Source of the DNA: a virus
Lineage: Duplodnaviria > Heunggongvirae > Uroviricota > Caudoviricetes
DNA: 41,470 bases
IMG/VR virus record: IMGVR_UViG_2690316195_000001
Location: 1-41,470 of that record
Direction: 5' to 3' (one strand)
Made by a program: the position numbers and the translations under genes. Below are positions 1 through 41,470 of this stretch, in pieces (position 1 is the stretch's first letter; the number at the start of each line of letters is the position of its first letter). The notes below the pieces were generated by a model. The model saw nothing but the letters and a program-made list of their open reading frames with translations. It had not been told where the DNA came from and did no database searches.

Positions 1-1248
1 ATGGCACTGAATATTCCATTCAGAAATGCGTACTATCGTTTTGCATCCAGTTACTCATTTCTCTTTTTTATTTCCTGGTCGCTGTGGTGGTCGTTATACG
101 CTATTTGGCTGAAAGGACATCTAGGGTTGACAGGGACGGAATTAGGTACACTTTATTCGGTCAACCAGTTTACCAGCATTCTATTTATGATGTTCTACGG
201 CATCGTTCAGGATAAACTCGGTCTGAAGAAACCGCTCATCTGGTGTATGAGTTTCATCCTGGTCTTGACCGGACCGTTTATGATTTACGTTTATGAACCG
301 TTACTGCAAAGCAATTTTTCTGTAGGTCTAATTCTGGGGGCGCTATTTTTTGGCTTGGGGTATCTGGCGGGATGCGGTTTGCTTGATAGCTTCACCGAAA
401 AAATGGCGCGAAATTTTCATTTCGAATATGGAACAGCGCGCGCCTGGGGATCTTTTGGCTATGCTATTGGCGCGTTCTTTGCCGGCATATTTTTTAGTAT
501 CAGTCCCCATATCAACTTCTGGTTGGTCTCGCTATTTGGCGCTGTATTTATGATGATCAACATGCGTTTTAAAGATAAGGATCACCAGTGCGTAGCGGCA
601 GATGCGGGAGGGGTAAAAAAAGAGGATTTTATCGCAGTTTTCAAGGATCGAAACTTCTGGGTTTTCGTCATATTTATTGTGGGGACGTGGTCTTTCTATA
701 ACATTTTTGATCAACAACTTTTTCCTGTCTTTTATTCAGGTTTATTCGAATCACACGATGTAGGAACGCGCCTGTATGGTTATCTCAACTCATTCCAGGT
801 GGTACTCGAAGCGCTGTGCATGGCGATTATTCCTTTCTTTGTGAATCGGGTAGGGCCAAAAAATGCATTACTTATCGGAGTTGTGATTATGGCGTTGCGT
901 ATCCTTTCCTGCGCGCTGTTCGTTAACCCCTGGATTATTTCATTAGTGAAGTTGTTACATGCCATTGAGGTTCCACTTTGTGTCATATCCGTCTTCAAAT
1001 ACAGCGTGGCAAACTTTGATAAGCGCCTGTCGTCGACGATCTTTCTGATTGGTTTTCAAATTGCCAGTTCGCTTGGGATTGTGCTGCTTTCAACGCCGAC
1101 TGGGATACTCTTTGACCACGCAGGCTACCAGACAGTTTTCTTCGCAATTTCGGGTATTGTCTGCCTGATGTTGCTATTTGGCATTTTCTTCTTGAGTAAA
1201 AAACGCGAGCAAATAGTTATGGAAACGCCTGTACCTTCAGCAATATAG
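1..1248 (+). CDS. cscB: Sucrose:H+ symporter, LacY-family MFS permease (host gene, outside prophage)
   Basis: 415-aa ORF from the track, hydrophobic multi-TM composition, clear LacY-family character; N-terminus MALNIPFRNAYYRF matches CscB as I recall it. Internal ORFs on other frames treated as spurious. Confidence 0.8.
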   Translation: MALNIPFRNAYYRFASSYSFLFFISWSLWWSLYAIWLKGHLGLTGTELGTLYSVNQFTSILFMMFYGIVQDKLGLKKPLIWCMSFILVLTGPFMIYVYEPLLQSNFSVGLILGALFFGLGYLAGCGLLDSFTEKMARNFHFEYGTARAWGSFGYAIGAFFAGIFFSISPHINFWLVSLFGAVFMMINMRFKDKDHQCVAADAGGVKKEDFIAVFKDRNFWVFVIFIVGTWSFYNIFDQQLFPVFYSGLFESHDVGTRLYGYLNSFQVVLEALCMAIIPFFVNRVGPKNALLIGVVIMALRILSCALFVNPWIISLVKLLHAIEVPLCVISVFKYSVANFDKRLSSTIFLIGFQIASSLGIVLLSTPTGILFDHAGYQTVFFAISGIVCLMLLFGIFFLSKKREQIVMETPVPSAI

Positions 1249-18270: not shown

Positions 18271-18474
18271 ATGTACCGTATGGACAAAATCAGAGAATGG
18301 TTCAGTTACAGCTTCGGAGGACTGACTGCGATGGGTGGCATTCTCTCCCTGAATGACTGGGCTGTCATCATTGGTATTCTTTGTACTGTCGGCACATTTG
18401 GCATCAACTGGTACTACAAGCGCAAAGAGCGCGAGGACAGATTGAATGGCAATGTCACCGGCACTACGAAATAG
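18271..18474 (+). CDS. Holin, probably pinholin-type, with dual-start motif
   Basis: 67 aa, two TM segments, Gly-rich TMD1 ([13 protein letters not shown]), charged C-terminus; two Met codons at positions 1 and 4 (MYRM); partnered with a SAR endolysin. Confidence 0.7.
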
Positions 18475-18949
18475 CGTAATAGCGGCGATAAGTGGCGGGG
18501 CTATTGCTATAGCATCTGTGTTAATCACTGGGCCAAGTGGTAACGATGGTCTGGAAGGTGTCAGCTACATACCATACAAAGATATTGTTGGTGTATGGAC
18601 TGTATGTCACGGACATACCGGAAAAGACATCATGCTCGGTAAAACGTATACCGAAGCAGAATGCAAAGCCCTCCTGAATAAAGACCTTGCCACGGTAGCC
18701 AGACAAATTAACCCGTACATCAAAGTCGATATACCGGAAACAACGCGCGGCGCTCTTTACTCGTTCGTCTATAACGTGGGCGCAGGCAATTTCAGAACAT
18801 CTACTCTTCTTCGCAAAATAAACCAGGGCGATATCAAAGGCGCATGTGACCAGCTACGTCGTTGGACATATGCTGGCGGTAAGCAATGGAAAGGGCTGAT
18901 GACTCGCCGTGAGATTGAGCGTGAAGTCTGTTTGTGGGGGCAACAATGA
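18446..18949 (+). CDS. SAR endolysin (phage 21 R-type lysozyme)
   Basis: N-terminal signal-anchor-release domain ([30 protein letters not shown]) plus lysozyme core; matches the phage 21 endolysin by recall. Confidence 0.9.
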
Positions 18950-19383
18950 GCAGAGCAACCGCGATTATCTCTGCTCTGGTTATCTGCATCATCGTCTGCC
19001 TGTCATTGGCTGTTAATCATTACCGTGATAACGCCATGACCTACAAAGAGCAGCGCGATAAGGCCACATCCACAATCGCTGACATGCAGAAGCGTCAACG
19101 TGATGTAGCAGAACTTGACGCCAGATACACAAAGGAGCTTGCTGATGCTAACGCGACTATCGAAAGCCTCCGTGCTGATGTTTCTGCTGGGCGTAAGCGC
19201 CTGCAAGTCGCCGCCACCTGTGCAAAGTCAACGACCGGAGCCAGCAGCATGGGCGATGGAGAAAGCCCAAGACTTACAGCAGATGCTGAACTCAATTATT
19301 ACCGTCTCCGAAGTGGAATCGACAAGATAACCGCGCAGGTTAACTACCTGCAGGAGTACATCAGGACGCAATGCCTTCGATGA
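18946..19383 (+). CDS. Rz: Rz i-spanin
   Basis: [30 protein letters not shown]... resembles lambda Rz; ATGA overlap with the endolysin stop. Confidence 0.9.
19145..19330 (+). CDS. Rz1: Rz1 o-spanin lipoprotein, embedded in Rz in the +1 frame
   Basis: AAGGAG RBS 7 nt upstream; signal peptide with lipobox LLGVSAC; Pro-rich mature region. Confidence 0.8.
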
Positions 19384-26852: not shown

Positions 26853-27038
26853 ATGGATCGCATGAGTGTATTCCTTGCCGCAGATAACGAATCCGGGCAT
26901 GTACAGGCCGTTATCGCAGAAAAAGACCTCCAGTTTTTCGAAAAGTTGGGCTTTGTTGCCTCAGTTGATGAATTGAAACCGACCAGTAAGCGAGGTCGTA
27001 AGGCGGAAGACAATGGCAACAGTACTGACAAAGGGTGA
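26853..27038 (+). CDS. Hypothetical small protein (61 aa)
   Basis: Track ORF with AAGGA RBS; overlaps the next gene by 26 nt. Confidence 0.45.
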   Translation: MDRMSVFLAADNESGHVQAVIAEKDLQFFEKLGFVASVDELKPTSKRGRKAEDNGNSTDKG

Positions 27039-27495
27039 GATCGTCCTTTTTGCGCTTCGTAAGTTTGCTATTGCTTCTAATGCATCGCTGACTGATGTTG
27101 AGCCGCAATCAATTGAAGATGGTGTAAATGATCTGGAAGATATGATGTCCGAGTGGATGATTAACCCCGGCGACATTGGTTACGCTTTCGCAACTGGAGA
27201 TGAGCAGCCATTACCAGATGATGAGTCAGGTCTTCCAAGAAAATACAAACACGCAGTAGGCTATCAGTTATTGCTGAGAATGCTATCTGATTACAGCCTT
27301 GAGCCAACTCCGCAAGTTCTCAGTAACGCCCAACGCTCATATGATGCCTTGATGACCGACACTCTGGTTGTTCCTTCAATGCGACGACGTGGAGATTTTC
27401 CTGTAGGGCAGGGTAATAAATATGACGTGTTCACATCTGACCGATATTATCCAGGCGATCTCCCTCTGATTGATGGCGATATCCCAAACGCATAG
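27013..27495 (+). CDS. Head-tail adaptor (P22 gp4 homologue)
   Basis: ...[23 protein letters not shown] resembles P22 gp4 ([23 protein letters not shown]). Confidence 0.85.
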   Translation: [160 protein letters not shown]

Positions 27496-28922: not shown

Positions 28923-29770
28923 TGGCGGATTCGAATCTCAATGTGCCGGTAATCATCCAGGCTACGCGGCTAGATACATCAGTTCTTCCACGCAATATCT
29001 TCTCGCAGTCGTATCTGCTTTACGTTATCGCACAGGGCACTGATGTTGGTAACGTGGCTAACAAGGCCAACGAGGCCGGACAGGGCGCTTATGACGCACA
29101 AGTCAGGAACGATGAGCAGGATGTGATTCTCGCTGACCATGAGCAGCGAATTTCTGCTGCGGAAGCAACTCTTGTTAATCATGAGGAGCGAATCAGCCAG
29201 GCAGAATCAACTCTTCAGGAACATGAAACACGAATAGCTCAGAATGAAAGCGATATTGCGTCGCTTGATACCAGAGTTCAGTCGCTGGAATCGCAGGTTT
29301 CAGACCATGAAACGCGCATCGATGCTCTGGAGTATGCCACTACTCGCAAGAAGTCAGAGGTTGTTTACTCTGGCGTATCTGTAACCATACCGACAGCGCC
29401 TACCAACCTTGTTAGCCTGCTGAAAACGCTCACGCCGTCATCCGGCTCGTTGGCACCATTCTTCGACACAGTTAACAACAAGATGGTTGTGTTCAACGAG
29501 AACAAAACCTTGTTCTTCAAGCTGTCGATCGTCGGGACGTGGCCCAGCGGAACCGCCAACAGGTCAATGCAGCTAACCTTTTCAGGCTCTGTTCCTGACA
29601 CACTGGTAAGCAGTCGTAATGCGGCGACAACAACCGACAACATCCTGTTAGCTACGTTCTTCAGCGTGGATAAAGACGGATTTCTTGCCACAAATGGCAG
29701 TACGTTAACCATCCAGTCAAATGGTGCGGCGTTTACTGCCACAACCATCAAGATAATCGCGGAGCAGTGA
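28922..29770 (+). CDS. Tail needle (P22 gp26 homologue) with divergent C-terminal domain
   Basis: N-terminus [43 protein letters not shown] matches gp26; trimeric coiled-coil heptads; C-terminal 120 aa unlike P22. Confidence 0.85.
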
Positions 29771-30225
29771 TGATTCAGTTCAAACCAACGCGAAACATCG
29801 ACCTGATCGAAGCAGTCGGAAATCACCCTGACATTATTGCCGGGAGCAACAACGGTGATGGATACGACTACAAACCTGATTGCCGTTACTTTGAGGTGAA
29901 CGTGCACGGGCAGTTCGGCGGCATTGTTTACTATCAGGAGATTCAGCCGCTGACATTCGATTGCCACGCCATGTACCTGCCAGAGATTCGCGGCTTCAGC
30001 AAGGAAATTGGGCTGGCGTTCTGGCGATACATTCTGACTAACACCACCGTTCAGTGCGTCACATCGTTCGCCGCACGCAAATTCCGCCACGGGCAGATGT
30101 ACTGCGCAATGATTGGCCTTAAGCGTGTAGGAACCATCAAGAAATACTTCAAAGGCGTGGATGACGTGACGTTTTACAGCGCCACACGCGAAGAACTAAT
30201 CGACTTCCTGAATCACGGGAGATAG
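29767..30225 (+). CDS. gp14-like virion assembly protein (by synteny)
   Basis: Position between the tail needle and the ejection-protein genes; ATGA overlap. Confidence 0.55.
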
Positions 30226-30227
30226 CT

Positions 30228-30920
30228 ATGTTATATGCATTTAAGCTGGGCAGAAAACTGCGCGGCGAGGAACCTTATTGCCCTGAAAAAGGCGGGAAAG
30301 GTGGCAGCTCTGATAAAAGCGCAAAGTATGCAGCAGAAGCTCAGAAGTATGCCGCAGACCTGCAAAATCAGCAGTGGCAGACGATCATGAAAAACCTTGC
30401 TCCGTTCACGCCTCTTGCGGAGCAGTATGTTAACCAGCTTCAGAATCTTTCCAGTTTAGAAGGTCAGGGGCAGGCACTTAATCAGTATTACAACTCTCAG
30501 CAGTATAAAGACCTTGCAGGTCAGGCGCGTTACCAGAGTCTTGCTGCTGCGGAGGCGACGGGTGGACTTGGTTCGACAGCCACAAGCAATCAACTGGCTA
30601 CGATCGCGCCGACACTCGGTCAGTCTTGGTTATCAAATCAGATGAGCAATTACAACAATCTGGCAAACGTTGGGCTTGGTGCGCTGCAAGGTCAGGCAAA
30701 CGCTGGGCAGACATACGCCAACAACATGAGCAGCATTGCACAGCAAAGTGCAGCACTTGCCGCTGCTAATGCCAATAAACCATCAAGTCTTCAGACTGCA
30801 ATTAGCGGTGGCACGTCTGGTGCGATCGCCGGTGCAGGTCTTGCCAGCCTTTTGGGAACATCAACGCCTTGGGGCGCTGGCATTGGTGCTGGTATCGGAT
30901 TGCTTGGCTCGTTGTTTTAA
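30228..30920 (+). CDS. Ejection protein, gp7-like (by synteny and size)
   Basis: 230 aa, Gln/Ala/Gly-rich with C-terminal hydrophobic segment; first of three ejection-protein genes. Confidence 0.65.
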   Translation: MLYAFKLGRKLRGEEPYCPEKGGKGGSSDKSAKYAAEAQKYAADLQNQQWQTIMKNLAPFTPLAEQYVNQLQNLSSLEGQGQALNQYYNSQQYKDLAGQARYQSLAAAEATGGLGSTATSNQLATIAPTLGQSWLSNQMSNYNNLANVGLGALQGQANAGQTYANNMSSIAQQSAALAAANANKPSSLQTAISGGTSGAIAGAGLASLLGTSTPWGAGIGAGIGLLGSLF

Positions 30921-30929
30921 GGGGTAATC

Positions 30930-32261
30930 ATGGCTACTTGGCAAGGAACAAACGGCGGATTGTTGGCTGGTATCGGCGGCGTCAACTCAAACGCTCCGAG
31001 CGTAAATGACATCGGCAATACGCTTCAGCTTATCAGGCAGAACAATGATATTGAGCGTTCAGGCGCTAACAATGTTGGGCTGACTGCTTTGCAAGGCCTT
31101 TCAGGTATTGCGGGTGTTTTTCAGCAGGAAAAGCAGGCTCAGCGGCAGAAAGAATTTCAGCAGGCGTACGCTAATGCTTATGCGTCTGGTGATCGCGGTG
31201 CTTTGCGTCAGTTGGCTACTCAATATCCAGACCAGATTGAATCCGTTCGTAAAGGCATGGGATTCATTGATGAAGAGCAGCGTAATTCTATCGGCACCTT
31301 AGCGGCTGGCGCACGCCTTGCGTCATCGTCTCCAGAAGCAATGCAATCATGGCTGCAAAACAACGCCGGTGAGTTAGCTCGTGTTGGCGTTAATCCTCAT
31401 GACGTCGCTCAGATGTACCAACAGAACCCGCGGCAGTTCGGCGAATTTGTCGATCACCTGGGGATGAACAGTCTCGGGCCCGAAAAATACTTTGACCTAC
31501 AGGATAAAATGCAGGGTCGCCAGGTTACCATGCGCGGTCAGGATCTGGATTCGCAAACCGCCGCTCGGAATCAGGCAATCACAATGCGCGGGCAAGATAT
31601 CCAGGCGAATTTAGGTCAGCAGCGCATTAATCTGGACGCAGAAACAAACCGCATTAACAACGAAAATAAGCGCCTTGACCGGATGCTATCAGCAGAAACT
31701 AACGACCTGAAGCGCCAGGAAATACAGAGCCGCATAGCAGCCAACAACCAGCAGTTGCAGCAGAAGCAGCAAGCGCTAAATGATGGCTACAAAGACGGCA
31801 TCAACACCCTCACAACCAGCATGTTCACTCTGAACGATATCGTTAGTTCTCCTTCACTTAAGAGCATTACAGGCTTACGTGGAGTAATCCCCAACGTTCC
31901 AGGCTCACAGGCTGCAGACACTCAGGCACGACTTGATACCTTTAAATCCCAAGCATACCTGACAGCGGTTCAGGCCATGCGAGGCATGGGCGCACTTTCT
32001 GATGCCGAGGGCAAAAAGCTCGACCAGGCTGTTGGTTCGCTGCAGAACTCGCAGAGCGAGGAGTCATTTCGTCGCAACGCTGGCGTCATCCTGAACACTC
32101 TCAACCAGAAGCGTAATGAGGCGGTTGGTAAGTACGTTCAGCAAAACGGTATCAAGCGAGTGGAAGCGCCTCAGGCTTCTATAGATTACCTGAAGCAGCA
32201 CCCCGAGCTGTCAATCGACTTCATTAATCGCTACGGATATCTTCCATCTTTGGGGCAGTAA
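30930..32261 (+). CDS. Ejection protein, gp20-like (by synteny)
   Basis: 443 aa, Gln-rich, second of three ejection-protein genes. Confidence 0.65.
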   Translation: MATWQGTNGGLLAGIGGVNSNAPSVNDIGNTLQLIRQNNDIERSGANNVGLTALQGLSGIAGVFQQEKQAQRQKEFQQAYANAYASGDRGALRQLATQYPDQIESVRKGMGFIDEEQRNSIGTLAAGARLASSSPEAMQSWLQNNAGELARVGVNPHDVAQMYQQNPRQFGEFVDHLGMNSLGPEKYFDLQDKMQGRQVTMRGQDLDSQTAARNQAITMRGQDIQANLGQQRINLDAETNRINNENKRLDRMLSAETNDLKRQEIQSRIAANNQQLQQKQQALNDGYKDGINTLTTSMFTLNDIVSSPSLKSITGLRGVIPNVPGSQAADTQARLDTFKSQAYLTAVQAMRGMGALSDAEGKKLDQAVGSLQNSQSEESFRRNAGVILNTLNQKRNEAVGKYVQQNGIKRVEAPQASIDYLKQHPELSIDFINRYGYLPSLGQ

Positions 32262-34655
32262 ATGGCTAATTACCGTGATTTGTTAGAGCAGGCTGGCGCA
32301 CGTTACGGTGTGCCAGAAGGGTTGATGACTGCACTGGGTGCCAAGGAGTCTTCTTACAACCCTGCCGCAGTAAGCTCCGCCGGGGCTGTAGGATTGACTC
32401 AGGTCATGCCTGGGACATGGCGTGATATGGGTTATACCGATGAGCAAATGCAAAACCCCGAATATCAGGCTGACGCTGGCGCGCGCTATCTGGCAAAGAT
32501 GTACCAGCAGTTTGGTAACTGGCGTGACGCTCTTCAGGCTTATCACGACGGTCCCGGCAACGTTATGAAGGCAAAGCGTGGTGAATATACGCCAGGACCT
32601 GAAGGCCGCGGTTACGTTGATGATCGCTTTGCTCAATGGGCGGGTGACCCGGTGACAGACTCAACAGTCGAACAGCGCGCCACCTCTGCAAAGGTACATC
32701 CTCAGCAAGACCCTAACAACCCGTTTGCACAACTGGAAGCACAGTCATCCGAACAAGTATCGGCATCAGGCGTGCAGTCAGACCCAAATAATCCATTTGC
32801 TCAGATTGAGCAGCAGGCAGCCAGTCAGCAGCCACCCCAACCCGTAAGTTCTGTCGCACCGAAACCTGTTCAGCAGCAAGGCGGAATAATGTCTGACCTT
32901 GGTAATGGACTTGCTGAAACCGGGCGCGGCTTACTACAGGCAGGAATCAACGTAGCGAACATACCTGCTGAACTCACTGATGCTGTAACAAGCGCGGCGG
33001 CTTGGGCTGGCGGTAAACTCGGCATTGGCGATGGTACATATCAACCAGCACCACGAGTAACAACGCAGGGATTAGAGCAGGACTTTGGCCTTCAGCAAGG
33101 CGCGCTGACTCCACAAACGACAGAGGGAAGGGTATTTGCTGAAGCATTACCTTACCTCACTCCTGCTGGCGTTGAGAGAGCGGCAACACAGGCACCAACA
33201 CTTGCTGGTCGAATTGCTCAGGGGGCAACTCGCCTTCTAGCAGAAAACGCAGTTGGATCACTTGCTGCAAACAGTGCGAAAGATGATGCGGAAGCACTCG
33301 CCACCGATTTAGGCGTTGGTGTGCTGGCTGGCGGTACTATTAACGCTGCCGGACGTGGATTAGGTGCTGCTTATCGTGGTGTTCGTGGTTCGATAGCACC
33401 AGAAGCTCAACAGGCTATCAGGTTTGCAGAGCGTGAAGGAGTTCCTCTGCACACCACAGACCTGTTACAGCCTACTTCCCGCGTCGGGAAAATGGCGCAG
33501 ACTACAGCAGAAAATATCCCTCTGGCTGGCACAAGCGGAATGAGAGCAACGCAACAGGAAGCGAGAAGCCAGTTGGTGCAGAGATTTGCTGATAAATTCG
33601 GTGAGTATGATCCATCTGTTGTTATTGACAGCCTTAAAGCGAAAACATCAGGAATTCGTCGTGCCGCCGGTAATCGACTGGAGCAGGTTCAGAATGCTAT
33701 GGCTGGAGTAAACATTCAGCCTGCGCGAGCAATTCAGCAGATTGATACAGAAATATCTAATCTGCAGAAGCTTGGTAAGGTAGCTGATAACGAGACAATT
33801 TCAAAACTTCAGTCATATCGTGATGAGCTTGTTCGCAATGCTGGCCCTGATGGTCCGGTTAATCTGGATTTGAAGCAATTAAGCGATCTGCGCAGCCAGT
33901 TCAGAATGGACGTGAAGGGGGAGCGACCAGTGTTACCAAACCGTTCCGATGCCGCCATTCAACGTGTTTACAAGGCGATGACCGACGATATCAATGGTGC
34001 CATTGGTCAGAATCTTGGCAACGATACTCTCCGTAAATATCAGCAGGCCAATGCCGTCTACGCTGACGAAGCGGCGAAACTAAAGAATACCAGGCTGAAG
34101 AATGTTCTCATGAAAGGAGACCTGACGCCGGAAGTTGTCAACAACATGCTATTCAGCAAGAACAAATCGGAAATTAAGACGCTGTATAACTCAGTTGGTC
34201 GTGTTGGCAGGGCGCAAATGCGCAATGGCATCATTGGAAAGGCGATGGAGAAATCTGGCGGATCCCCTGACCAGTTCCTTCGGCAGCTTAACATCCTGCA
34301 AAACCAGACTGGCATCACATTTAAGGGGCAGGACGCTGCTTATCTGAAAGGATTAAAAAACTACCTGCAATCCACGCAGCAGGCTGCAAAAGCGGCAGTA
34401 ACAACACCCACAGGGCAGCAAACTATCCCGTTCATTATTGGGTATGGGACGGCAATGAACCCGGCGACAACTGGCGCAGCGGTAAGCTACGGACTTCTTA
34501 CTCGCGCCTATGAGAGCGAACCATTCAGAAATGCAATGCTCCGAATGGCAAACACCCCACGCGGATCAACAGCCTTTGAGAAAGCAATGCAGCAGGCACA
34601 AAAGGCAATTAACGCTCTGACGCAGGGGGCTAAGTCTGATGCGTTGTCAGAATAG
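32262..34655 (+). CDS. Ejection protein (gp16 position) with N-terminal lytic transglycosylase domain
   Basis: 797 aa; N-terminus carries an SLT-like motif (ALGAKESSYNPAAVSSAGAVGLTQVMPGTWRD...YHDGPGNV). Confidence 0.75.
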   Translation: MANYRDLLEQAGARYGVPEGLMTALGAKESSYNPAAVSSAGAVGLTQVMPGTWRDMGYTDEQMQNPEYQADAGARYLAKMYQQFGNWRDALQAYHDGPGNVMKAKRGEYTPGPEGRGYVDDRFAQWAGDPVTDSTVEQRATSAKVHPQQDPNNPFAQLEAQSSEQVSASGVQSDPNNPFAQIEQQAASQQPPQPVSSVAPKPVQQQGGIMSDLGNGLAETGRGLLQAGINVANIPAELTDAVTSAAAWAGGKLGIGDGTYQPAPRVTTQGLEQDFGLQQGALTPQTTEGRVFAEALPYLTPAGVERAATQAPTLAGRIAQGATRLLAENAVGSLAANSAKDDAEALATDLGVGVLAGGTINAAGRGLGAAYRGVRGSIAPEAQQAIRFAEREGVPLHTTDLLQPTSRVGKMAQTTAENIPLAGTSGMRATQQEARSQLVQRFADKFGEYDPSVVIDSLKAKTSGIRRAAGNRLEQVQNAMAGVNIQPARAIQQIDTEISNLQKLGKVADNETISKLQSYRDELVRNAGPDGPVNLDLKQLSDLRSQFRMDVKGERPVLPNRSDAAIQRVYKAMTDDINGAIGQNLGNDTLRKYQQANAVYADEAAKLKNTRLKNVLMKGDLTPEVVNNMLFSKNKSEIKTLYNSVGRVGRAQMRNGIIGKAMEKSGGSPDQFLRQLNILQNQTGITFKGQDAAYLKGLKNYLQSTQQAAKAAVTTPTGQQTIPFIIGYGTAMNPATTGAAVSYGLLTRAYESEPFRNAMLRMANTPRGSTAFEKAMQQAQKAINALTQGAKSDALSE

Positions 34656-34745: not shown

Positions 34746-35231
34746 TTATCTTATGTTACTGCTACTGTTGCATGTGACTGTATTTCCAAACCCTGAATTG
34801 CAGTTTGTGTAAGTGTCAACGCGTGTTGGATAGGGTTGAGTTATAACAGGCTGTCTCGCTTTTTGCTCGATCGCTTGCATTGTGTTTACAGCCTGATAAT
34901 TCAATAAAGCCTGCTGGAATGCTTGGCTTTGTGCTATTTGTTGGGCTTGTTCTTGGCTTTGTAATTGAACATAAAGATTCTGAAGCTCAAGTCTTGCCTG
35001 TGCGTCACTTATCTTGCCTTCATCGACACCTTGCCCGAGCATCTTTGCAGCAAGGACATACAGCTTAGGTGTTGGTGCTGATGCCATGCGTGAGTCGTTC
35101 TTCACACTGGCATCAAGGCAATTAGCCATATCGCTAAGCTTTTGATAGCGTTGTTCGCAACTTGCTTGATAGTCACTTACTTTTGCGCATCCAACCAGTA
35201 GAAGCGGGATAATTAACAGTGATTTTTTCAT
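34746..35231 (-). CDS. Lipoprotein of unknown function (moron on opposite strand)
   Basis: Start trimmed to MKKSLLIIPLLLVGC (lipobox LVGC) with AAGGAGAG RBS; Gln-rich mature region with several Cys. Confidence 0.7.
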   Translation of the reverse strand: MKKSLLIIPLLLVGCAKVSDYQASCEQRYQKLSDMANCLDASVKNDSRMASAPTPKLYVLAAKMLGQGVDEGKISDAQARLELQNLYVQLQSQEQAQQIAQSQAFQQALLNYQAVNTMQAIEQKARQPVITQPYPTRVDTYTNCNSGFGNTVTCNSSSNIR

Positions 35232-35301
35232 ATGGTTAACTCTCCTTAGTTTTTCACAGGATATCATGAAGGCAATGCCATTTTATCCGGAAACTAGATT
35301 T

Positions 35302-37586: not shown

Positions 37587-37619
37587 AAGGGCGAATACCG
37601 CCCTTAGCTTATTTTTTTA
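37587..37619. terminator. Bidirectional rho-independent terminator between convergent tailspike and gtrC
   Basis: Stem AAGGGCG/CGCCCTT, loop AATAC, with A-rich 5' flank and T-rich 3' flank. Confidence 0.6.
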
Positions 37620-38880
37620 TTATATCTAAATACCATCCTGAGTGTGGTAGTGTGTGCATTTTCACGCGGCTCCCTGGCTCTGCTGTCTCATATTTGTATG
37701 CCTCTTGCACCCATCCATTGTTAGGTCTTTTTTCAATTTTAAAGCTAACAATTCCAGATAGAATTACTGAGCAAGCCACTATGCAAAATGCTAATTTCTT
37801 TACATGCCCATGAAGCATATTAGTGAATGCTAGAAGTATCGACACCCAAAATATGGCCGGTATGACAAAATACCTTTGTCCTGGTCCTATTTGTAAGAGA
37901 GGCCATTGAGGCTGGTCTCTTGCAATGACTGGTCTGGCAAGGGCAAATCCCAACATAAGATAAGGAAAAATCACTAATGCTTTTTCTTTCCAGTTCCCTT
38001 TTAATAGCACGTATGCACTAATTGATAGGCCACATAAAGAAACAAAGTAATTTAAAGCATGCAGATCCCACACCTTTCTTGATAAGCTCTCGCTAAGAAA
38101 TGAGCCAAGGAATACTCTGGAGGATAGTATATCCATCAAAATACCTACACCTGCACCAAGTGGCGCGGTCGGTCGAGAGCCTTTAGAAGAGAGAAGTATG
38201 GCGGCTATCTGAATTAAACACACTATTGCGAAAGTTATGTAGAATAAGTTTAAGTTTCTGAATGCATTTTTTACTGCATTGATAGGAGTTTTTAGAATAT
38301 CTCCGTTTGTAATTCTTAGTAAGGCAACAGGAGCTAAAAAAACAATGAATGGCCCACTTAGGCCAGCCACAACCATCACCAAAAAGTCGTGTGCTTTCCA
38401 ATATAATCCATCAGTTCTATCTGCTACCAGCACCAAGAATAGCCATATTGCCATATACCAATGAGTGTTGGTTACGTTGGCATGCACCTCTTCAAGGTGT
38501 GGCATAGTTAAAATGAAGATTGAAATTAATATTCTTGGATATATAGAAACGCTTTTGAATCTATTAGATAGTATGAAGGTTATTATTACGCATCTTATCG
38601 ATAATGCAATAACAGTGAAAATAAAAGGTGATAGATATAATGGGAACAGCATGGAGAATGTCGCAACAAGTTTTGAAATTGTCTGATAGTAACCATCCTG
38701 TACTAAAATTATAGATTTCAGAGGGCCCAATGCATAAGCCTGACCAAGCCATACCCGTCCATCCTCTGCCCATAGTTGAGGGTGTGAAATAATATCAGGA
38801 CGACGCATGCAGAATATGATGAAACATATAACAAATATAATCAAAAACAAAAATATTCTGTTTGTGTTTATGCTATTCAT
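37609..38880 (-). CDS. gtrC: GtrC-like serotype-specific O-antigen glucosyltransferase (polytopic membrane protein)
   Basis: 423 aa, about 10 TM segments, AT-rich; ATGA overlap with gtrB; third gene of a gtrABC-type operon. Confidence 0.65.
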
Positions 38881-39800
38881 GATTGTTCCTTTTTCTTTAA
38901 AATATATCGTGGTCTGCATTTTACTTCCACATAAATTCTTCCTATATATTCACCAAGTACACCGATACCGATAAGTTGAATACCTCCAAGGAAAAGAATG
39001 GAGACCAATAACGATGGATATCCACGAACAGCATTGCCGAATACAAGCGTGTCAAAAATCATCCATGCACCATAAAGAAAAGCAATTCCAGCAACGAACA
39101 ATCCGATATAAGTCCACATGCGCAGCGGGAATGTTGAGAAACTGGTTATCCCCTCAAGGGCAAGGTTCCACAGTTTCCATCCGTTAAATTTAGTGCTGCC
39201 TGCGACTCGTTCTGCTCGTGCATATTCAACGACATCGGTGCGTCCGCCAACCCAGCTCAGCACGCCCTTCATAAACAGGTTGCGCTCTGGCATGAGCTTA
39301 ATGTTTTCCACCACCTCGCGAGACATCAAGCGGAAATCACCAACGTTTTCCTCGATCTGCGGGTTGCTAATTTTGTTATGCAGCTTATAGAACCACTCGG
39401 CGGTTTTCCTCTTCAGTCTGCCATCCGTTGATCGGTCAGATCGTTTAGCAAGCACCATATCGGCACCTGCTTGCCACTTTTCAATCAGATGAGGAATAAC
39501 CTCAATCGGGTCTTGCAGGTCAACATCAATAGGAATAACAGCATCGCCTGTTGCATGGTCTAACCCTGCGAATAATGCTGGTTCTTTACCAAAGTTTCGT
39601 GTAAATGACAGCGGAACAACTAGAGGATCTGAAACAGCCAGAGCATTAATAATTGACTCCGTAGCGTCTTTGCTGCCGTCATTTATGAAAACAATTTCCA
39701 CTTCGTATGGCTTCAACTCTTCGAATTCACGTACCGTTTTATAAAAAATTGGTATTGCTTCTTCTTCATTGAAGACAGGAACTACAAGAGATATCTTCAT
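38877..39800 (-). CDS. gtrB: GtrB bactoprenol glucosyltransferase (GT2 family)
   Basis: 307 aa; GT2 motifs ([19 protein letters not shown]-x-D region) plus two C-terminal TM helices. Confidence 0.9.
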
Positions 39801-40159
39801 TTCGCATCCCTAAAGACAATGAACTTTGAATAGACGAAACCGCACACAAGACTGATGGCTGAGAAGGTGATGAGAGTGACAATTGGAGGAAGTGAACATC
39901 TATCAGCAGCCCATCCAACAGTTGCACTCAGTGTTCCCATGAACCCGACATATAACATGTAGCGCATCGTTGTAGTTGATGCTTTGAATGTGAATTTTGC
40001 ATTCGCGAAGAAGCTAAAACTCACAGCCACAACAAAACCTGCGAAGTTTGCAAGAGCTTGGTTTGTATGCGCGACATAGATACATACACCAAAAACCACC
40101 CAGTGTATAAGTGTGTTCAGCACACCAATCGAGGTGTACTTTGCAAATAGCTTTAACAT
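39797..40159 (-). CDS. gtrA: GtrA flippase (GtrA/DPMS2-family small membrane protein)
   Basis: 120 aa with four TM segments; ATGA overlap with gtrB. Confidence 0.85.
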
Positions 40160-40312
40160 TTCTTCTATCAGCTAATAATCAAAGGCATGAAGTCTATCAT
40201 CCAAGTCTCAATCGATCGATGACTTGCTGTGGTTGATGAGACAAAACTGATGCACACAAAGCTTTGCACTGGATTGCTAGACTTTGCGCTCTTCGATAGT
40301 GGTTAAGGTGGA

Positions 40313-41470
40313 TCACTCCACCTTTTCATCAAGCCAGTCCGCCCACCATTGCATCATTTCCCTGCGTTTATCGAGATACTGCGCATGGTTGTAAATCCCG
40401 CGCACAGAACCGCCGTTGGCATGTGCCAGTTGCACTTCAATAGCATCAGCAGGCCATTCGTGCTCGTTCATAATCGTGCTGAATTCATGCCTGAATCCGT
40501 GACCGCTTTCCAGACCCTCATAGCCGATTTGTTTGATCACAAGCAATACCGCGTTCTCGCAGATTGGCTTTTTCTTATCGTTGCGGCCGGCAAAAACAAA
40601 CTCTGATACTGGTTTGGTGATAGAGCTTAGCGTAGTGAGAAGTTCAACCACCTGGTCTGACATAGGAACCACATGAATTTTGCGTCCCTTCATCACACTG
40701 GCGTTGATAGTGATAATCCTGTTTTCAAAATCGACGTTATTCCATAGCATAGAACGAAGCTCTTTCGTTCTTAGGGCTGTATAGCGTAAAACCTTGGTGG
40801 CAATGAGCGATACGATACTTCCTGAAAATGTTGCAAGTGCTTTGTTGAATGCCGGGATCTGGTCGGCAGGTAAAAATGGGAAGTTCTTCTTGCGGTATCC
40901 CTTCATGGCGTCAGCAAGGTCAGGTGCCGGGTTATATTTAGCCCTACCAGTGACAATAGCGTAACGGAAAACCTCGCCGCATCTTCTGCGGGCTTTGTTG
41001 GCTCGCTCCATTGCACCGCGATCTTCAAATCTGCGGATTACTTCCAGCAGTTGCATCGGCTCAATATCCTGAATTTCAAGGCCGCCGATGATAGGTAAAA
41101 TGTCGTCATCAAACATTTTTGCAAGTTCAGTCGCATACCCTACTGACCAGACTTGCTTCTTGTGCTCGTACCATTCCTTGTAAATCGCACTAAAGGAATT
41201 GTTGTTAGACGAAGCCTTTTTCGCCTTTACCGGATCGATGCCAACCGAGATGTCTTTCCTCGCAGTCCATGCCTTATCCCTTGCCTCCTGCAAAGTCATT
41301 AGCGGATATTTTCCTACGGTCAGGATTTTCTCCTTACCGTCAATCTTGTAGCGAAGCTGCCATACCTTTTTCCCTGACACAGGGACATAAAGGTACAGGC
41401 CATTACCATCGAGAAGGCGGTATGGTTTTTCTTTCGGCTTTGCTGCTTCAATCTGCTTAACGGTGAGCAT
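40313..41470 (-). CDS. int: Tyrosine integrase, P4/CP4-57 type
   Basis: 385 aa; N-terminal arm-binding DUF4102-like region (KPYRLLDGNGLYLYV...WQLRYK) and C-terminal catalytic domain (R...HGFRHEF...Y); start codon is the last codon of the window. Confidence 0.9.
   Translation of the reverse strand: MLTVKQIEAAKPKEKPYRLLDGNGLYLYVPVSGKKVWQLRYKIDGKEKILTVGKYPLMTLQEARDKAWTARKDISVGIDPVKAKKASSNNNSFSAIYKEWYEHKKQVWSVGYATELAKMFDDDILPIIGGLEIQDIEPMQLLEVIRRFEDRGAMERANKARRRCGEVFRYAIVTGRAKYNPAPDLADAMKGYRKKNFPFLPADQIPAFNKALATFSGSIVSLIATKVLRYTALRTKELRSMLWNNVDFENRIITINASVMKGRKIHVVPMSDQVVELLTTLSSITKPVSEFVFAGRNDKKKPICENAVLLVIKQIGYEGLESGHGFRHEFSTIMNEHEWPADAIEVQLAHANGGSVRGIYNHAQYLDKRREMMQWWADWLDEKVE

Follow-up and report, generated by a model that had tools for sequence, protein, structure and literature searches.

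How might a wall-cutting domain carried on the last ejection protein of a P22-like phage serve genome entry, when sibling phages infect without one? The question is raised by a gene for a gp16-type ejection (DNA transfer) protein in IMG/VR virus record IMGVR_UViG_2690316195_000001, which was analysed over its whole length of 41,470 nucleotides (here called the window). The integrase and gtr-like genes at the right end of the window and the permease at its left end mark this P22-like (Lederbergvirus) Escherichia coli genome as a prophage with some flank. It is quite likely that the protein joins an N-terminal SLT domain, with E29 as its catalytic residue, to a flexible Q/P-rich linker of ~80 residues and a gp16 core, and that the domain cuts the wall during entry.

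The SLT domain and the gp16 core

The gene and its parts are as follows.

32262..34655, + strand: gp16-type ejection (DNA transfer) protein gene; ATG start, 797 aa, stop included
32262..32642, + strand: SLT / family-1 lytic transglycosylase domain, aa 1-127 (Pfam match aa 7-110)
32346..32351, + strand: codons GAG TCT for E29-S30, the predicted catalytic glutamate and the conserved serine, from alignments
32643..32882, + strand: Q/P/S-rich linker, predicted disordered, aa 128-207 (predicted local distance difference test, pLDDT, ~47-69)
32709..32741, + strand: short motif copy 1, DPNNPFAQLEA, aa 150-160; short helix predicted at aa 156-160
32781..32813, + strand: short motif copy 2, DPNNPFAQIEQ, aa 174-184; helix predicted at aa 178-188
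32883..34652, + strand: P22 gp16 / Sf6 gp13 core, aa 208-797 (PF26808 Phage_P22_gp16, PHROG 770)

The initial annotation had noticed an SLT-type motif near the start of the protein, and the peptide quoted for it, AKESSYNPAAVSSAGAVGLTQVMP, corresponds to residues 27-50. A Pfam domain assignment, named there as a check, gave a strong result: the SLT profile (PF01464) matches aa 7-110 with E=2.8e-25 and 88.6 bits, the gathering cut-off being 21.3, which is far beyond chance. The catalytic glutamate is present on alignment as well, since E29-S30 fall on the catalytic pair E478-S479 of E. coli Slt70, the top match in a search of solved structures, and on E37-S38 of T7 gp16. In an alignment of 76 sequences (the protein and 75 homologues) the residues E29, S30, A42, G44, Q47, Y76, Y94 and G97 are invariant, with G44 and Q47 belonging to the signature motif GLTQ (aa 44-47) and Y94 and G97 to the signature motif AYHDG (aa 93-97). 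An AlphaFold2 model of aa 1-207 has pLDDT >90 over aa 1-110, with helices that run to ~127, and Foldseek matched it at a probability of 1.00 to Slt70 (1qte), Pseudomonas aeruginosa Slt (5ohu), LtgA (5mpq), MltC, MltD, MltE and MltF, the T7 core protein chain 7eyb_I appearing at rank 50. Model and search agree on the goose-lysozyme-like all-alpha fold. On every feature that can be tested from sequence the protein is thus a member of the SLT family (family-1 lytic transglycosylases, GH23), and lytic transglycosylase activity, i.e., a cleavage that forms 1,6-anhydro-N-acetylmuramic acid (1,6-anhydroMurNAc), is predicted for it. The initial description of a virion-delivered peptidoglycan hydrolase fused to an ejection protein therefore stands for the fusion of SLT domain and gp16, and needs amending in the word hydrolase, which in the strict sense does not apply to a lytic transglycosylase.

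The linker that follows is composed of 20% Q, 14% P and 12.5% S. The core beyond it is 97% identical to aa 76-665 of Sf6 gp13 and 33% identical to P22 gp16 (E=2e-79), and it matches PHROG 770 "DNA transfer protein" with E=5.8e-240; the PF26808 assignment is one precomputed on near-identical proteins. It is predicted to be all-alpha, with low confidence over aa 114-449. Judged by all that sequence allows, the protein is a P22 gp16-family member too. At 797 aa the open reading frame (ORF) is indeed larger than P22 gp16, which has 609 aa and had been put at roughly 600. The setting agrees: homologues of gp4, gp10, an Sf6-type knobbed tail needle, gp14, gp7 and gp20 were found upstream by Pfam, giving the synteny gp4-gp10-gp26-gp14-gp7-gp20-gp16, and downstream lie an Mnt/Arc-like repressor and then a tailspike with the P22 head-binding domain. 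These neighbours identify the genome as P22-like (Lederbergvirus) and the gene as the third for an ejection protein, as had been proposed, in the order gp7 (PF25688) - gp20 (PF16928) - gp16 and between gp14 and the tailspike region. The earlier label "channel-forming" for gp16 draws on the P22 literature; overall, homology supports the interpretation given in the initial annotation.

An SLT domain by itself is a routine annotation, and a virion-borne transglycosylase on an ejection protein is of a well-known kind. The value of the locus lies in a natural experiment, in that close P22-like phages differ only in the wall-cutting domain of gp16, so that its contribution to envelope crossing is measurable in isogenic swaps; now that a structure of the P22 conduit in situ is available, such a measurement has become practical.

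A probable role in wall cutting during genome entry

The presence of gp16 in the virion, its release and its association with the cytoplasmic membrane are known only for P22 (bioRxiv 10.64898/2026.09.03.749273; PMC10461980). In situ cryo-electron microscopy of P22 showed that gp7 and gp20 assemble first, that a helical barrel of gp20 (residues 186-255) spans the peptidoglycan, and that gp16 assembles last, on the C-terminal plinth of gp20 and across the cytoplasmic membrane (bioRxiv 10.64898/2026.09.03.749273). By analogy, the protein of the window would be packaged in the head and leave through the tail after gp7 and gp20. Seated on the 'plinth' at the C-terminal end of the gp20 tube, its core would complete the conduit where this meets the cytoplasmic membrane. 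Its N-terminal region would dock on the gp20 C-terminus, with the SLT domain held in the periplasm by the ~80-residue linker. Tethered in this way, the domain would cut MurNAc-GlcNAc bonds locally to leave 1,6-anhydroMurNAc ends, and the mesh of peptidoglycan that surrounds the conduit would thereby be opened or made wider, easing the conduit's own formation or widening.

The closest precedent is T7 gp16 (IVP-D), whose transglycosylase is required for internalisation of the genome when the peptidoglycan is highly cross-linked (PMC8954989). In T7, too, the third ejection protein, the largest of them, begins with the SLT domain, which is 28% identical to aa 2-119 (E=1e-10, with E37 opposite E29), and in both proteins an extended, non-globular segment follows it; T7 gp16 is ejected to build a trans-envelope conduit, as the protein of the window presumably is. 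The likeness ends there, as the remaining ~1160 aa of T7 gp16 have no detectable similarity to the core (best BLASTP E=1.7), and Hardies et al. (PMC4819975) described T7 IVP-D and P22 gp16 as alternatives that never co-occur. The pre-formed core stack is also a T7 feature, absent in P22-like phages according to a review (PMC8954989). The protein would therefore act like the N-terminal part of T7 gp16 yet belongs outside the T7 IVP-D family, given the lack of homology in its body and the alternation reported in the literature.

Several observations weigh against a wall-cutting role at entry. One departure from the family signature exists, and only one: the third motif reads AYHDG in place of AYNAG, with H at position 95 where at least 90% of the homologues have N. 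The full-length AlphaFold2 model of the monomer is poor (mean pLDDT 54; usable only for the SLT domain and aa 450-710), and no classical transmembrane helix was found by a Kyte-Doolittle scan (maximal 19-residue mean 1.23). The gp7-gp20 tube of P22 needs no gp16 to span the peptidoglycan (bioRxiv 10.64898/2026.09.03.749273), so that an enzyme borne on gp16 may come too late for the crossing of the wall itself, which puts a 'drill first' model in difficulty. P22 and Sf6 manage without the domain, and a muralytic activity has already been credited to P22 gp4 (PMC5380687).

Some of these points would suit another explanation, in which the SLT fold is a non-catalytic peptidoglycan-binding or anchoring domain, or a decaying relic, that positions gp16 and gp20 at the wall: the third signature motif is off consensus at the otherwise conserved N95, Sf6 and P22 are fully infectious without the domain, and the P22 gp20 tube passes the wall without gp16. 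This explanation seems improbable to us, because the family's eight invariant residues, the E-S pair among them, are all preserved, the domain is modelled at pLDDT >90, and the histidine recurs in phages of other genera. Murrayvirus IME_EC2 gp26 (1007 aa) and Skarprettervirus Skarpretter gp17 (977 aa) have an SLT domain at the gp16 position in the same gp4-gp10-needle-gp14-gp7-gp20-gp16 order, and at 55-63% identity they keep E-S, GL(T/G)QVMP and AYHDGPGN; conservation of the AYHDGPGN variant between genera at that distance speaks for function rather than decay.

Whether the domain acts at entry or late in infection was considered in the light of the other lytic genes in the window.

18446-18949, + strand: T4-type lysozyme (PF00959, E=1e-45)
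18934-19383, + strand: Rz (PF03245, E=2e-37)
27013..27495, + strand: gp4 tail adaptor homologue (PF11650, E=3e-74)

The domain might be suspected of acting late, by the time of lysis, whether as an auxiliary endolysin or through lysis from without, since PHROG profiles with similar domains are named 'endolysin' and 'lytic tail protein'. Such late action is nevertheless very unlikely: the phage has its own lysozyme and Rz in a late lysis cassette at 18.4-19.4 kb, so that the SLT domain is not its endolysin, and the domain shares its reading frame with an ejection protein encoded within a virion-assembly operon. There is furthermore no signal sequence, no holin-associated context was seen (this was not examined in detail), and the T7 precedent is one of entry. 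The gp4 homologue might provide the phage with a second wall-degrading activity, as P22 gp4 is listed as a virion-associated lysin. Although the muralytic activity attributed to it is virion-borne too, P22 gp4 is a different protein with a different fold, located in the neck, which is not ejected and has no SLT motif.

Wall cutting during entry thus remains the favored role; the virion packaging of the protein, its activity and its part in crossing the wall would all follow from analogy. Because sibling phages without the domain (Sf6 and P22) are viable, the SLT domain is probably accessory, being conditionally useful when the wall is highly cross-linked and not essential. The same module is carried by isolated, viable phages, namely IME10, Sf101, Huey, Dewey and APC_JM3.2.

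Exchangeable modules and the gp20 tail

Comparison of gp16 proteins indicates that the SLT domain and linker came by a module swap and not by addition, i.e., that 206 aa stand in place of another N-terminal module of 50-80 aa. Sf6 gp13 (665 aa), at the same gene position, has a 75-aa N-terminal module (MAKAWKDV...) where the window has SLT domain and linker, and P22 gp16, again at the same position, has one of ~50 aa (MKVTANGKTF...). No SLT match was obtained by Pfam in Sf6 gp13 or in SLT-less gp16 proteins from the databases, and the P22 gp16 N-terminus is unlike the SLT module by sequence comparison (the Pfam run did not include P22 gp16). Over residues 1-206 no aligned position differs between the protein and the N-terminus of Sf101 gp13 (911 aa), which then continues with a P22-type core. 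The module is 100% identical over BLAST-aligned aa 1-183 in Sf101, IME10, Huey, Dewey, APC_JM3.2 and phiKp_30; the Sf101-type proteins (911 aa) carry it on a P22-type core, whereas here it is on an Sf6-type core. In IME_EC2 and Skarpretter the cores are longer and divergent. The Sf6-type core alone was found in database proteins with at least five alternative N-terminal modules, and the types are the following.

Type A: MKVTANGKTF...
Type B: MAKAWKDVIASPQYQ...
Type C: SLT plus linker
Type D: MAYSREQLMTAL...
Type E: bare tandem MANFFDQFD...NFFDQFD

The extent of the exchange was taken from DNA comparisons, which define the following unit.

31467..32873, + strand: mosaic cassette of the gp20 C-terminal half and the gp16 SLT module, from blastn breakpoints against Sf6

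Identity to Sf6 DNA is 95% through 31466, then the sequences diverge and the match resumes at 32874, whereas Sf101 DNA matches at 98% across 29770-32879 (blastn). A Cronobacter prophage is 95-100% identical to the window over 31377-33026, as against 62-71% in the gp20 N-terminal half and 35-77% past 33026. The Sf6 breakpoints and the Cronobacter profile together delimit a mobile unit of ~1.4-1.6 kb, and the SLT module with its linker, as one of at least five exchangeable N-terminal modules of gp16, appears from these sequences to move horizontally together with the C-terminal half of gp20.

Could the long ORF be an artefact, either of sequencing or assembly, by which an SLT gene was joined to gp16, or of deletion fusion in a defective prophage? 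Genuine deletion fusions of the gp16 core, to N-termini of gp20, gp7, the needle or NinG, do occur as database singletons. The 797-aa form, though, belongs to a cluster of 1295 members, its junction is found in 53 complete E. coli genomes, and the architecture recurs in isolated phages, in Cronobacter with a diverged core and in other genera. The chance that it is an artefact is accordingly negligible, these distribution data having effectively refuted it.

The cassette brings the end of gp20 and the beginning of gp16 together, and the relevant features are listed here.

30228..30920, + strand: gp7 homologue, first ejection protein (PF25688, E=1.8e-134)
30930..32261, + strand: gp20 homologue, 443 aa (PF16928, E=1e-67); its stop abuts the gp16 ATG in the same frame
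32169..32258, + strand: gp20 C-terminal tail PQASIDYLKQHPELSIDFINRYGYLPSLGQ, aa 414-443; always found with gp16 of the N-x-F-(D/A)-Q motif type

Four pair types were recognized, each combining a gp20 C-terminus (the last 8-30 residues) with a gp16 N-terminal module (32262-32882 in the window), with no exception in 92 loci; the survey comprised 20 named phages and prophages and 72 IMG/VR loci and reached genera as distant as those of APSE-2, Sodalis phiSG1, Proteus Brookers, Skarpretter, Aeromonas 4_4512 and Shewanella ZP9.

Tail ...SGI(K/Q)F(T/K)VE with type A: P22, BTP1, APSE-2
Tail ...(F/Y)SSLWGD with type B: Sf6, Gally, HK620, CUS-3, Louie, L, Proteus Brookers
Tail ...(I/V)(S/N)KYLGG(Q/R) with type D: P0195, Sodalis phiSG1
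Tail ...F..(K/R)YG(Y/F)LP.. with gp16 that has two N-x-F-(D/A)-Q-(F/L/I) motifs

Among the IMG/VR loci the pairs held in 36/36, 19/19, 14/14 and 3/3. The YG(Y/F)LP group includes proteins with the SLT domain (the window, Sf101, Cronobacter, Skarpretter and IME_EC2) and proteins without it, namely Aeromonas 4_4512, which has another insert of ~120 aa, and Shewanella ZP9 and P0244, which have nothing between the motifs; P0244 was fetched to test the predicted link of tail and motif, and the outcome was as predicted. IME_EC2 and Skarpretter have a gp20 tail of the ...YG(Y/F)LP type and two N-x-F-D-Q-F motifs, as here in type, but one motif precedes the SLT domain and one follows it, whereas in the window both follow. 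Within each pair type, core type and gp20 length vary freely, and both the gp16 core and the body of the gp20 C-terminal half reassort freely.

Two narrower ideas were discarded on the way. That the ...YGYLP tail of gp20 is specific to SLT-bearing gp16 was rejected, given that Aeromonas 4_4512, Shewanella ZP9 and the prophage P0244 have the tail without the domain; the tail tracks the N-x-F-D-Q motif and not SLT. Phage L had been thought to combine a P22-type gp20 tail with an A-type gp16, which was wrong, as it has the SSLWGD tail and a B-type module; BTP1 is an A-type example on an Sf6-type core.

Since the pairs are conserved across genera amid diverged surroundings, a physical interface is plausible, and the gp16 N-terminal module and the gp20 C-terminal tail could be a co-adapted docking pair that sets which gp16 assembles on which gp20, a proposal that we put forward tentatively and that is about as open to doubt as to belief, with doubt slightly ahead. 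It would explain why P22 loses its infectivity with either Sf6 gene 16 or Sf6 gene 20 alone but is infectious with both, and why P22 cannot do without the last 33 aa of its gp20 (PMC10461980). It also fits the AlphaFold3-based suggestion that the gp20 C-terminal segment rearranges when gp16 residues 1-205 are given (bioRxiv 10.64898/2026.09.03.749273). The trivial alternative is plain linkage, for which it can be said that the segments lie side by side, lack homology from one type to another and have Q-rich stretches around them in which crossovers occur. If the docking pair is real, its co-inheritance points to the probable contact site of both proteins, and the SLT domain may be cargo inserted into a docking module of the N-x-F-(D/A)-Q-(F/L/I) type; that two motif copies per gp16 would match a stoichiometry of 12 gp20 to 6 gp16 is a speculation.

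In the gp16 N-terminus of Aeromonas phage 4_4512 (L009:5093-5500) the ~120 aa lie between two NPFDQFD motifs, where Skarpretter and IME_EC2 have the SLT domain. This segment had no Pfam or PHROG match and could be a different cargo domain. At window positions 32259-32264 the gp20 TAA directly precedes the gp16 ATG in frame, whereas most others, Sf6 and P22 among them, have a one-base overlap at this point (ATGA). The abutment is consistent with translational coupling, and a single change in the stop codon would join gp20 and gp16 into one protein.

The rare database fusions mentioned above, whose gp16 core follows an N-terminal piece from gp7, gp20, the tail needle or NinG, comprise P0171/P0173/P0176 (782 aa), P0178/P0211 (767/769 aa), P0152/P0179 (798/835 aa) and P0175 (776 aa), and are probably deletion fusions in decaying prophages.

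Distribution, names and neighbouring genes

The identical 797-aa protein is RefSeq WP_064761096.1, a "lytic transglycosylase domain-containing protein" that belongs to the 90% cluster of 1295 members already referred to. Of 5426 complete E. coli genomes, 67-70 have the module, and 53 of these show the Sf6-type junction seen here; a P22-like gp10 gene is present in ~855-923. It was found in 14 of the 72 IMG/VR loci sharing this gp7, which were gathered by gp7 alignment and hence represent near-identical gp7 only, and it also occurs in the isolated phages already named for it, phiKp_30 included. Sf101 gp13 is annotated "transglycosylase", and in the related genera Murrayvirus and Skarprettervirus SLT-bearing proteins at the gp16 position are the rule (domain identity 55-63%). 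From the RefSeq name and this distribution the feature is already known at the level of annotation. No paper analysing it was found, Casjens & Thuman-Commike 2011, which may describe the module, being outside the search. A 2022 review stated that P22-like phages lack this domain, and Table 2 of a review of virion-associated lysins (PMC5380687) lists only gp4 for P22. The presence of SLT-gp16 in P22-like phages is thus a correction to the review literature, while the RefSeq name is over-applied in the other direction.

RefSeq/PGAP applies "lytic transglycosylase domain-containing protein" to Sf6-type gp16 proteins of 665 aa without the SLT domain, e.g., P0174, P0177 and P0181, as well as L003:2722-4719 (VSe13_013), in which only PF26808 and no Pfam SLT match was found. 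The misleading name appears to have spread from the 797-aa form. The IME10 GenBank and RefSeq records NC_019501.1 / JF974339.1 / JN600960.1 contain a gp16 homologue (97% DNA identity over its full length) without an annotated feature.

Within the gp16 gene itself, an antisense ORF of 117 aa (window 32283-32636, - strand) lies in the SLT coding region and is most likely spurious. A possible internal start at M210, comparable to the 588-aa database variant P0160, is preceded by a Shine-Dalgarno-like sequence that is weak as judged by eye.

The flanks of the window carry further genes. At 1-1248 (+ strand) there is a CscB/LacY-like sugar symporter, either host flank or moron, which is also found inside the phage records vB_EcoP-611R6 and 683R2. 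Besides the integrase, the right end, 37609-41470 (- strand), holds gtrA/gtrB/gtrC-like genes of O-antigen modification, and it encodes a glucosyltransferase-like membrane protein of 436 aa. The guanine plus cytosine content is low (0.39-0.41) at 36-40 kb, a region that spans much of the tailspike gene and the gtr-like genes.

Where P22 has sieA, the window has an ORF of 173 aa (34746-35267, - strand) with a lipoprotein-type signal (MKKSLLIIPLLLVGC), convergent to gp16. It has no similarity to P22 SieA and belongs to PHROG family 6067, of unknown function. Its counterpart by position, the only basis for the comparison, is an unnamed ORF in Gally and a 'putative lipoprotein' in Proteus Brookers, and the ORF is a candidate for an alternative exclusion or moron gene.

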